From: Lophium mytilinum
Lineage: Eukaryota
Reading direction: 5' to 3'
NCBI GenBank assembly: GCA_010093605.1
Contig: MU004196.1
Location: forward strand, 1,014,606 to 1,078,605
DNA: 64,000 nucleotides
Made by a program: the position numbers and the translations under genes. This document shows, one piece after another, positions 50,592 through 54,570 of this stretch (positions are counted from its first letter, which is position 1; every line of letters begins with the position of its first letter). The notes under the pieces were generated by a model. It was not told the DNA's origin. It was given only the letters and a program-made list of their open reading frames with translations, and made no database searches.

Positions 50592-51036
50592 GGGTTGGGA
50601 GGGTGTGGTTTCGAAAGCGGGACTGAGAGAAGAGAGCGTTAGGCGAGGCCATATGGTTAGTTACTTTTGGCAGTAGGGCTCTTTCTCATCATATTTGAGG
50701 AGTGTATCTACCCTGGGAAGTAGAGTTTGGAAGCGAAGATTCGTGCATGGAGAATATGTCCTCTATCGATTCGAAAAGAGAGTGTCGTCTGAGGTGCATA
50801 TTTAGGCACGTATACCACGCGTCCAATCAAGAGTATTGTTTTCCGGTACGTAACGACCTAGAATGCAAGATTTTCAATCTATATGCGTCTATGACGAGGC
50901 AATTCAAACTTCCATACCCCTTTTTGATGTGGCCCTAACGAGCGCCGAGATCCTGTGCAGTAGAATACAGTACAGTCCATCCAAACACATACTTCTTCGC
51001 GCCATACCTAACTTCTCACCATCTCATTCTCCACGT

Positions 51037-52306
51037 TTAAGCCTTATATCCCACCTCGGTCAAACCCTCCTTCAATCCTTTCAGCGCCCTATCAATATCA
51101 TCCCTCTTCGGATCTGTCACACTGACGCCCATATGCCCAAACCGGATATACTTCGTCGCGATTTCCTTATGCAGTCCACCCGCGAAAATAACGCCCTTTT
51201 TCAACAGGCTCGGGAGGACTTGGGGCGGCGCAATGCTCTCGGGGAGGTAGATAGCGGTCATGCCGTTGGCCTGGTTCTCGGGCTTAGCAGCGAGTTGCTT
51301 GAGGCCGAATTCGCCGATCGCTTTCTTGATCTTCTGGGACGCGGCTTTGTGGTCCGAGAAGCGCTGTTCCAGGGGCCGAGAGAGGATCTGAGTTAGGGAC
51401 GTATGTAGCGCGTGGATGAGCTGAGGAGAGGGGGTGGCGAAGTAGCTGGGCTTCTTGGCTTCGTAGTTTTGCATGACTGTAATGATCCAATCAGTGTAAT
51501 TCTGGAGTCTGAAAGTGTTTCAGGAGTTGGTGACATACTCGGCAACCAGTTCTTCCACGATCCAAAATACGACGTCGGCCGTGTCTTCCTCGCCTTAAAT
51601 ACTTCGATCGCGCGGCCAGAGGCCATCAAGATGCTCAGACCAGCCGGGCACCCAATCGCCTTCTGGCTGGCAGTGAGCACTACGTCGAGGCCCCAGTCGT
51701 CGAACCGGATCTCCTCGCAGCCAACACTGCACACGCCGTCCACGACAACGAGGGTCTCGGGGCTGACTTTGTGCACGAGCTCCGAGAGCGCCTTGAGCTC
51801 GCTCAGCACACCGGTGGAGGTGTCGACGTGTGTGACGGTGAGGACTTTGTACTTCTTCTCCTTCAGCGCTTTCTCCACCTCGTCCAGTTGCGGCCGGTCT
51901 CCAATGGGTGCTTTCAGTTGTGTAGCATTCACGCCATATGTCTCGAAGCAGTCGGCGAACGAGTCCGCAAAGTAGCCAGTGTGTAGCACGAGGGCCTCAT
52001 CGCCCGGCTCGGTGAGGTTGGCCGCGACCTGGTCCCATCCCAGTGTTCCAGAGCCGGAGAGCACGATTGGTTGCGATGCGGCGTCGGTGGTCTGGAACAG
52101 CTGCCGTAGCATCGACAGGACCTCGCTGAAGGTGTTCACGAAGGGTGCGCCGACATGGGATTCGCTGGACTGACATCAGCGGATGTATTAGGGGTGATTG
52201 CAGGTGTATATGCGTACCTGTAATGGCTCATAGACTGGAGCACCTCGTCATCGAACTCAATTGGGCCCGGGATGAGCAGTGCAGCATGCGGCGGCTGGGA
52301 AGACAT
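51037..52306 (-). CDS. AGX1: Alanine-glyoxylate aminotransferase (class V PLP), 3 exons; possible non-AUG N-terminal extension
   Basis: LLIPGPIE, GSGTLGWD, THVDTSTGV, DGVCS, TASQKA (PLP lysine) and IRFGHMG; first in-frame ATG at 52306. Confidence 0.92.
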
Positions 52307-52756
52307 GGTGGGCGGTGGAGGCGGAGGCTTGGGGCGGTTTGCAGGGTAGCCAGTTGCGTCTTCAGGTACAGCAGAGCGCTCAGTAGAGAAGGGCGTGTTC
52401 AATTCAAAGGGCTTGGAGTCGAGGTGTCTGGCGATCAGACTCAGACGGGAGCGAGGGGAAGCCACCTTGAAGGAGGGGTACAGTCGAGCAAATCGGCTGC
52501 GGGGGGAAGCCAGGATGCCGGTTTCGGAGAGAAGGGCTAGGAGCGCGTGTGTTGGCAATGAATTGCACGTGTAGTTGCTGCTTTTCGGGCGTGGGGACTG
52601 CGGGCGTCGATGTTTTCAAGTCACGATGCGCGTGCTGGGTGTATTGTAACAGGAGAATGTCGCGAAACATTGCCGTTCTCAGTGGCTAACGGGAAGGTTT
52701 GACTCTTCCAAGCTTCTTCTTTTTCTCTCTGGAGCCACTTCGGCCAGCGCCGTTAA

Positions 52757-52795
52757 CGGCGTCTGCTCAGCGGCGTCTGCTCAGCGGCGTCTGCT
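52757..52795. repeat. 14-bp tandem repeat (CGGCGTCTGCTCAG) x ~2.8 in the AGX1/VPS29 divergent promoter
   Basis: Units at 52757, 52771 and 52785. Confidence 0.85.
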
Positions 52796-53017
52796 TACTC
52801 GACATGGGGTCTAGACGTGGAGGCTCCCGGCATCTCTTGAGCCGCAAAAGCAGCCCTGTTCAACAGTCACAGTGAATACATGCAGTGACGTTGCCCCCCT
52901 GCCAAGCCACCGCCCAAGCTTCGAGGGAAGCTCGTGCTCCACCTCCACCACACTTCGCCAGCCAATTCAGTTCGTGGGGTTGGTCACGGTGCGCTGCGGG
53001 AGAACAGAAACATCGCC

Positions 53018-53803
53018 ATGACCTCGAGACTGGTCCTCTGTCTTGGAGACTTGTTCATTCCAGACCGAGCTGCTGTGAGTCCTGTTCGCGCTACACTCCC
53101 CTCGCTCAAATGCTCACCGTGATGCCAGGACATTCCCACAAAGGTACCCGCCAACACTCCTTCCACCTCTACCTGAGGTTGCACGCATCCACAGACGCTT
53201 ATACAACCCCCTAGTTCAAAAAACTCCTCGCGCCCGGCAAAATCGGCCAGATCCTCTGCCTAGGCAACCTCACCGACAAAGACACCTACGAGTTCCTGCG
53301 CGGCATAGCCCCCGACCTGCAAATTGTAAAAGGCGACTTCGACGTCGAAGCGCCCAATCTCGCCCTCTCGAAAGTCGTCACCCACGGCTCGCTGCGCATC
53401 GGCTTCACCCATGGCCACACCATAATCCCCCCGGGCGACGGCGACAGCCTACTGATCGCCGCGCGGCAGATGGACGTCGACATCCTACTATGGGGCGGGA
53501 CCCACAAGTTCGAGGCCTATGAGATGGAGGGCAAGTTCTTTGTGAATCCGGGGAGTGCCACGGGCGCCATGACGACGGGGTGGTGGCCTGAGGAGGAGGA
53601 ACCGACGCCGAGTTTTGTACTGATGGATGTGCGTATTTCGCTGGAGATGGACTGGGAAGTGGGGTTTAGTGCTGACAGTTTGATAGGTCCAAGGCGATGT
53701 CCTCGTGATATACGTGTACCAGCTCAAGAAAGACGACAAGGGCGCGGAGAACGTGGTCGTCGAGAAGCTGTCTTTCCGGAAGAATGGCGGTGGTGTATCA
53801 TAG
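53018..53803 (+). CDS. VPS29: Retromer subunit Vps29 (4 exons including a 15-nt microexon at 53129-53143)
   Basis: LVLCLGDLFIP, ILCLGNL, VKGDFD, GFTHGH, GGTHKF and FFVNPGSATGA. Confidence 0.93.
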
Positions 53804-53959
53804 CGAGCGAAAATAGTTTGATATCCAGTAATCAGAGATTGGTCATGCAAAGATTATGGGAAATTCAGAAATGTGGGGTCTCATATACTGATTTTATTGT
53901 CAAGATACAACCTGTCCACATTGTGTCAATGGACAACTCAAGCCAGACCTTGCGTCTTT

Positions 53960-54570
53960 ACGTCCGTGCGATTTGGACACGAGTTGGGCATATTATTGGC
54001 GCAGCCCGTGAATCACACTATTCAGTGGTGTTGATTGCCGAAGACTCTGTTTTGGACTCTCGAATTGGAGTTGATTTGGGTGTGGTGAGATGTATAAAGT
54101 GGAGCCAGCCCGTGCGATTTGGACTTGATTTTGATATATTATTGGAGCAACTTGTGAATTAGGCTACCTGAAAGCGTTGATTTCCGTAGGTCTTGAATCG
54201 GATCATAGAATTAGGGTTGATTTGGTGTGCTGAGATGTATGAAGTGGAGCCGGTCCGCGCAATTTAGGCATGATTCTGGCATGTTATTGGAGGACGCTCC
54301 TTATCAGGCTCTGAAGTTGGGGTAGATTTGGCGGCGTTGAGATGTATGAAGTAGAGCCAGTCCGTACGATTTGAACTCGATTTGGGCATATTATTAGAGG
54401 ACGCCGCATATCACATCATGGATTTGGGGTATACTTGGGTGTGGTAAGATGTATAAAGTGGAGCCAGTCCGTGCGATTTGCAGTCAATTTAGGCATGTTG
54501 GTGAACGGCCTATATTAGATCTTGAATGTAGGGTATATTTAGCTGTGATAAGATGTACGAAGTGGAGTTG
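53960..54570 (+). repeat. Array B of the GTGAGATG...CGATTTGG repeat family (4 full and 2 partial units)
   Basis: Cores at 54085, 54230, 54337 and 54444; a 3' half-core at 53962 and a 5' half-core at 54548. Confidence 0.9.

Follow-up and report, generated by a model that had tools for sequence, protein, structure and literature searches.

The AGX1 locus of Lophium mytilinum raises the question of whether one mRNA could supply the same enzyme to mitochondria, peroxisomes and the cytosol through three successive start codons, only the last of which is an AUG. The locus lies in the window, by which we mean the whole stretch of 64,000 nucleotides analysed (contig MU004196.1 of assembly GCA_010093605.1, positions 1,014,606 to 1,078,605), and an initial annotation had proposed that CUG, GUG and AUG starts yield mitochondrial, peroxisomal and cytosolic isoforms, respectively. 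The gene itself occupies three exons on the minus strand (51037-52306): exon 1 of the core (52218-52306) opens with the annotated ATG at 52306, which has A at -3; exon 2 (51539-52164) carries the PF00266 domain and finds 2bkw as its best PDB match; and exon 3 (51037-51476) ends in YKA-stop. Both introns are confirmed by RNA contigs, the joint of the 53-nt intron 1 (52165-52217) in runs X1 and X2 and that of the 62-nt intron 2 (51477-51538) in run X1. The spliced product of 384 residues is identical to the L. mytilinum database protein P0001, which starts at the core Met, and a protein search with exon 2 returned a single match in the genome. By its Aminotran_5 match (86 bits) and its closest solved relative (2bkw, "alanine-glyoxylate aminotransferase 1", E 3e-91), the product is a class V alanine-glyoxylate aminotransferase, this activity being predicted.

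The open frame upstream of the core AUG

Upstream of the ATG at 52306, the frame stays open for 103 codons, back to an in-frame TGA at 52618-52616 (minus strand), and contains no in-frame ATG. Within it lie two near-cognate codons that share A at -3, G at +4 and a following ASPRSR. The first, which we term site 1, is a CTG at 52511-52513 with GCT as the next codon (context ggcatcCTGgct), and initiation there would give a predicted form of 453 residues; the second, site 2, is a GTG at 52463-52465 (context ttcaagGTGgct), with a predicted product of 437 residues. Six codons 3' of the GTG, at 52421-52447, the frame encodes RLSLIARHL, so placed that the motif begins at residue 7 counted from the GTG. 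This nonapeptide fits the PTS2 consensus (R/K)(L/V/I)-x5-(H/Q)(L/A) (PMC3798809; this and the other papers given by PMC number are cited from excerpts of their text). The 16 codons between the two sites (52466-52513) form an Arg-rich, acid-free, presequence-like stretch with four Arg/Lys and no Asp/Glu, and the 31 residues that begin with the CTG and close with the PTS2 hold seven Arg/Lys and again no Asp/Glu. Downstream of the PTS2 follow a conserved peptide, LNTPFSTERS (52373-52402), and a variable Pro-rich linker to the core Met (52307-52372) that lacks the pattern R-x-[FLY]-S-[ST] carried by many orthologs. All of the elements on which the initial annotation had built, namely the ATG-less frame, the exact R-L-x5-H-L motif six residues from the N-terminus of a GTG-started form, the twin start contexts and the Arg-rich, acid-free segment added by a CTG start, were thus recovered.

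Chance is a poor source for this arrangement. The pattern R-L-x5-H-L occurs four times among the 127,996 six-frame residues of the window, corresponding to about 0.003 expected in 95 positions, and the loose PTS2 consensus has a window-based expectation of 0.014 in the same number of positions. Similarly, 0.017 occurrences of A-N-N-[CG]TG-GC are expected per 38 in-frame codons from the window-based frequency, and two are observed. A further near-cognate codon, the TTG at 52558, was considered and set aside, as it has T at -3, a poor context, and gave no sign of use as a start. As a separate observation, the ASPRSR repeat exists because the 14-20 nt that follow each start codon are almost identical (52494-52513 and 52446-52465, minus strand), reflecting either a local duplication or convergence.

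Conservation of the extension and of its start sites

Conservation was examined in two sets of proteins, for which the core was the sole basis of selection, and in one set of DNA loci. Protein set 1 comprised the best 120 of 5,244 matches to AGX1 exon 2; an extension of roughly 45 residues or more is annotated in 60 of these, and 46 of the 60 carry a PTS2. The 14 extended proteins without it include some His-Val or His-Ile variants and some apparently truncated models. Set 2 comprised 119 further proteins retrieved with a Sordariomycete core only, of which 74 are extended and 69 of those bear a PTS2; three of the five exceptions are Trichoderma proteins (P0216, P0221 and P0224) that have kept an Arg/Ser-rich extension, a possible loss of the peroxisomal form. 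For the remaining proteins of both sets, annotation starts at or close to the core Met, which makes them uninformative on the extension. The named sources span Dothideomycetes, Sordariomycetes and Leotiomycetes.

The DNA set consisted of the best 80 of 153 confirmed loci from a metagenome scan. An in-frame PTS2 is present in 71 of the 80; five loci are cut too short, and four of the 75 that can be judged lack the motif. As both the PTS2 and the LNTP motif were part of the query, the conservation of these two in the DNA set is partly circular; the query held no sequence upstream of the GTG. Removal of PTS2-less loci and exact duplicates left 67 rows, and exclusion of two with little upstream DNA left 65, forming 52 clusters. 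Across these clusters the codons of the PTS2 and of the LNTP peptide vary freely at silent positions, which points to selection on the protein. LNTPFSTERS is present in 47 of the 52, with T and P invariant and all four codons used for them; it is absent from many Sordariomycete extensions of set 2, and a Pfam search with it returned no matches. Contact with a co-receptor, processing or phosphorylation are guesses as to its role.

Start-like codons upstream of the PTS2 are largely confined to the coding frame. In the 114 nt 5' of the motif, R-N-N-[CG]TG-GC occurs 52 times in frame and four times and once in the other two frames, and ATG occurs 38 times in frame and once and not at all in the others, whereas the former pattern is absent from the 6,744 nt of linker 3' of the PTS2. 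Because Leu-Ala codons of a coding sequence would be in frame anyway, codon usage was compared with that of the core CDS. Leu before Ala is encoded by CTG in 45 of 63 cases upstream vs 29 of 103 in the core (Fisher p 7e-8), and Val before Ala by GTG in 11 of 15 vs 19 of 116 (p 1e-5), p-values that treat related clusters as independent. Moreover, with no filter on context applied, A stands at -3 in 47 of the 56 in-frame [CG]TG-GC. On these comparisons, near-cognate codon and context both appear to be conserved beyond the need for the amino acids.

By a fixed rule, site 2 carries ATG in 24 clusters, CTG in 18 and GTG in seven, and is absent from three, so that 49 of the 52 clusters have a start-like codon just 5' of the PTS2. 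Site 1 carries CTG in 26, ATG in 11 and GTG in three, and is absent from 12. Both sites are present in 39 of the 52 clusters by rule; manual review adds three (L023, L065 and L072), after which ten clusters have site 1 either out of frame or missing. No in-frame ATG lies between the upstream stop and the PTS2 in 22 of the 52 clusters, and there the PTS2 form could arise only via a non-AUG codon. Changes between ATG and a near-cognate codon number at least five at site 1 and at least six at site 2 on a tree of 43 loci and 23 named proteins that leaves out nine clusters with fewer than 280 core residues; the tree is a quick one with SH-aLRT support only, and 18 of its 63 forks are open. The ATGs differ in context according to position: a pyrimidine stands at -3 in eight of 11 site-1 ATGs, nine of 24 site-2 ATGs and none of 51 core ATGs, all 51 of which have a purine there, while A at -3 is found in ten of the 24 site-2 ATGs (two ATGs were reassigned to the other site after these tallies). 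The check on conservation called for at the outset thus turned out positive for the two start sites as well as for the extension and its PTS2, across the 52 clusters and the two protein sets. As a side observation, the site-1 CTG of loci L007-L009 and L015, 50-56 nt 5' of the PTS2, retains a strong context but, compared with L019 and L033, lies out of frame; this lineage may have lost the mitochondrial form, with the CUG now opening a short upstream ORF.

Three predicted forms and the competing readings

The reading we consider probable is that one AGX1 mRNA is read via leaky scanning, with CUG, GUG and AUG starts giving mitochondrial, peroxisomal and core forms. A minority of ribosomes would start at CUG 52513 and make the 453-residue form, whose Arg-rich, acid-free N-terminus would direct it to mitochondria; others would start at GUG 52465 and make the 437-residue form, which would enter peroxisomes via Pex7; and the remainder would reach AUG 52306 and make the 384-residue core, which, having no N-terminal signal, would reside in the cytosol or partly in peroxisomes. 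Alternative transcription starts possibly back up the leaky scanning. Such a scheme demands that both upstream starts stay leaky, hence near-cognate codons in strong context, or AUGs often in weak context. What we infer about initiation, organelle import and isoform ratios differs in strength from step to step: judged from sequence, the extension is almost certainly translated, a peroxisomal form is very probably made and a mitochondrial form is likely made, and the balance tips slightly toward a substantial cytosolic pool. Triple targeting, as proposed in the initial annotation, therefore fares unevenly, in that support is best for the peroxisomal arm and good for the mitochondrial arm, on the grounds of composition and of AUG-started orthologs, and the cytosolic arm is no more than plausible. 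As for the amounts to be expected, the non-AUG form of Ustilago maydis Pgd1 has a share of about 2% (PMC7214817), and non-AUG initiation on a cpc-1 reporter was under 1% in vivo and much more in extracts (PMC5487733).

Of all the links in this explanation, the least secure is the idea that the core form stays in the cytosol. A canonical PTS1 ((S/A/C)(K/R/H)(L/M)) is found at the C-terminus of none of the 239 proteins in the two sets, the L. mytilinum enzyme ending in YKA; this tripeptide also closes 33 of the 120 proteins of set 1, and QKA closes 69 of the 119 of set 2. Relatives of AGX1 are dimers, and piggy-back import would offer the core a second peroxisomal route if the AGX1 enzyme is dimeric. 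Import of oligomers into peroxisomes by piggy-back has been described (PMC3798809). For Magnaporthe oryzae AGT1, excerpts of PMC3338719 report that a QKA-ending fragment took GFP to peroxisomes, that a promoter-only construct was cytoplasmic and that full-length fusions gave no signal. From the behaviour of that fragment, the core form may be partly peroxisomal, and the earlier statement that YKA is not a PTS1, while correct as to the canonical signal, was too firm given the peroxisomal report for the similar end QKA.

RNA evidence bears on how the leader is presented to ribosomes. In run X1, the contig of record 1 spans the leader and exon 1 (52218-52696, minus strand) without a joint while both internal introns are removed from it; the RNA nature of this run is presumed, and the removal of both introns supports it. 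Some RNA therefore reaches 52696, a position that is a contig end and not a mapped transcription start. This contig includes an out-of-frame ATG at 52670 that opens an 88-codon ORF with its stop at 52404 (52404-52670, minus strand), overlapping both near-cognate sites, and translation of this ORF would lower the output of every form from the longest transcripts. A conserved regulatory upstream ORF was considered and rejected, as the positions of upstream out-of-frame ATGs vary among the 52 clusters. An RNA structure aiding initiation was likewise not persuasive, with z of -2.1 for the 114 nt 3' of the CTG as against +0.7 and +0.6 for two other stretches.

Several further features of the surroundings were noted in passing. 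In the stretch 50600-51037, the AGX1 RNA contig, with a total length of 5,164 nt, continues toward the neighbouring gene, through either overlapping 3' ends or an assembly merge. On the other side, some 260 bp (52696-52959) separate the RNA contig ends of AGX1 and of a divergent gene, which suggests a compact two-way promoter, and this gap holds a short tandem repeat near 52755-52795. The divergent gene starts near 53018, has a Metallophos_2 match and is presumably VPS29; RNA contigs from runs X1 and X4 reveal in it a 12-nt micro-exon (53130-53141, plus strand) between joint ends 53075 and 53213. A degenerate repeat with a unit of about 120 bp in four to five copies, counted by eye, lies at about 53950-54500.

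Transcription, rather than leaky scanning alone, might select the isoform, the same proteins being made through a promoter switch. Promoter-level switching of isoforms has been described for other dual-targeted enzymes, and several features of the locus would suit it. In run X2, a depth-2 contig stops within the PTS2, at 52429, a weak hint of a shorter transcript, and the loose end of 8 letters that it carries there resembles a template-switch tail; this contig comes from a relative, runs X2-X4 representing other organisms with small shares. The leader is also pyrimidine-rich at 52540-52421, the longest transcripts would have the ATG at 52670 as an obstacle, and the site-2 ATGs in strong context (A at -3, ten of 24) would starve the core AUG unless shorter transcripts were made. 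However, near-cognate codons, and the weak context in which most site-1 ATGs stand, are features that leaky scanning requires, and the 22 clusters without an in-frame ATG would still need a non-AUG codon for the PTS2 form. We regard selection by transcription starts as possible but unlikely; it is, moreover, compatible with leaky scanning, if long mRNAs carry both sites and short ones have their 5' end downstream of site 1 or of the PTS2.

Two leaky starts need not mean two organelles. Both might lead to the same peroxisomal protein, site 1 merely lifting the yield of the PTS2 form without any mitochondrial isoform, since even the CUG form has its PTS2 inside the N-terminal 31 residues. The loss of site 1 in several lineages would agree with such a role. 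It also means that a mitochondrial arm would not be universal. What makes a single destination rather improbable is the composition of the segment between the sites. In 39 such segments, that of AGX1 included (744 residues), Arg accounts for 15.6% and Asp plus Glu for 0.3%, as compared with 7.7% Arg and 4.7% acidic residues in equal lengths just upstream; acidic residues are thus nearly excluded and Arg is doubled, and the mean helical moment, 0.62 between the sites vs 0.38 just upstream, indicates an amphipathic pattern. The AGX1 segment itself, at 16 codons, is short. Additionally, many orthologs carry 3' of the PTS2 a motif, R-x-[FLY]-[SG]-[STAQ], that resembles known mitochondrial processing sites. 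It occurs shortly 5' of the core Met in 15 of 51 linkers (mean 0.5 and maximum 7 in 1,000 shuffles) and near the core Met in 42 of the 74 extended proteins of set 2, counts to be read with the knowledge that the pattern was picked after the sequences had been viewed. Cleavage at this motif would strip off the entire extension, PTS2 included, after import. Such a motif is absent from the linker of L. mytilinum AGX1, which speaks for the peroxisomal-only alternative, but the three Trichoderma proteins whose extension is Arg/Ser-rich yet devoid of a PTS2 speak against it. Separate mitochondrial and peroxisomal forms thus remain the reading we favour.

The converse proposal, that the entire extension is a mitochondrial presequence in which RLSLIARHL is part of an amphipathic helix with no import by Pex7, is very improbable. 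PTS2 signals have helical features in common with presequences, and either can be ambiguous (excerpts of PMC4585086), and the GUG form has three Arg within its first 14 residues. On the other hand, 69 of 74 extensions, whose flanks diverge freely, retain the R-L-x5-H-L spacing together with His at position 8. Presequences usually keep no exact motifs. A second start lies immediately 5' of the PTS2 in 49 of 52 clusters, and a thiolase of the L. mytilinum genome (L085, about 1140-1200) starts MAERLSSILSHI, a PTS2-like sequence with Ile at position 9. Finally, splicing of an upstream AUG into frame, for instance that at 52670 via the 88-nt intron (GTGACT 52624 to TAG 52537) which the initial annotation had named as refuting its proposal, would make a non-AUG start unnecessary and can be drawn on paper with 13 GT-AG pairs that give an open frame, but it is scarcely credible, as no joint within 52218-52696 is among the RNA-contig joints listed and the one informative contig runs unspliced over this interval, which argues against the intron as the main route (contigs drop rare variants, such that minor splicing could escape), the donor GTGACT is poor, and upstream ATG positions are not conserved, in contrast to the CTG/GTG codons and their contexts.

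Comparison with known systems

If leaky scanning operates as proposed, one gene would supply several compartments in a manner missed by annotation; many AGX1 gene models would be truncated, P0001 among them as it starts at the core Met; and the site of fungal glyoxylate transamination would need rethinking. The pairs AUG/AUG, CUG/AUG, CUG/CUG, CUG/GUG and GUG/GUG would also furnish a natural series with which to probe the effect of start strength on organelle partitioning. Fungi are already known to use non-AUG starts for appending a mitochondrial signal and, in one case, a PTS2; an enzyme given two N-terminal addresses by two stacked non-AUG starts would be new in the literature searched. In that search, which covered titles and the starts of abstracts and few subscription journals, no report of a non-AUG or PTS2 extension of a fungal AGT was found. 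AGX1 is unmentioned in PMC6582344, as are AGT and Agx1 in PMC9549241, and glyoxylate is unmentioned in the main texts of PMC5487733 and PMC7049704 and in one supplement of the latter, whose tables keyed by gene id could hide a match.

The closest precedent for the peroxisomal arm is the 6-phosphogluconate dehydrogenase Pgd1 of U. maydis, whose cryptic PTS2 arises from non-AUG initiation, as shown experimentally (PMC7214817). The likeness extends to an in-frame PTS2 in an apparent 5' leader that has no upstream AUG and is conserved in relatives, and to a minor peroxisomal form beside the AUG-started one (excerpts of PMC7214817). However, Pgd1 is another enzyme from another phylum and starts at AGG AUU, as opposed to CUG and GUG in strong context; AGX1, known from its sequence, has in addition a second start further upstream that would add a presequence-like segment. 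For the mitochondrial arm, the parallel is with dual-localised fungal aminoacyl-tRNA synthetases, where a leaky upstream start likewise adds a mitochondrial presequence, and weak AUG and near-cognate codons interchange across fungi (PMC7049704). In the portions of that work consulted, the synthetases have two forms for two compartments, whereas AGX1 would have two leaky upstream starts in series, the second exposing a PTS2.

Within the enzyme family, the ortholog M. oryzae AGT1 is reported as peroxisomal and modelled from the core Met with 385/386 residues (PMC3338719); in the excerpts of that report, targeting is credited to the C-terminal QKA and the N-terminal extension is not considered. 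A Pyricularia ortholog, P0145, is annotated with an AUG-started PTS2 extension. Mammalian AGT uses two AUG starts, chosen largely by the transcription start. Mammalian AGT (AGXT) is mitochondrial and/or peroxisomal depending on the species, and thus shares with AGX1 the enzyme family, the pair of organelles and the lineage-specific gain and loss of addresses, but its peroxisomal signal is a C-terminal, non-canonical PTS1 (excerpts of PMC4585086 and PMC3798809), in contrast to AGX1, both of whose predicted addresses are N-terminal, stacked and dependent on non-AUG starts. We tentatively suggest, in a generalization that may well prove too broad, that filamentous ascomycetes have conserved a three-step ladder of AGX1 starts on one mRNA, yielding mitochondrial, peroxisomal and untagged forms, from which lineages lose single rungs. 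If so, it would represent a fungal parallel to the shifting location of mammalian AGT, reached by other means.
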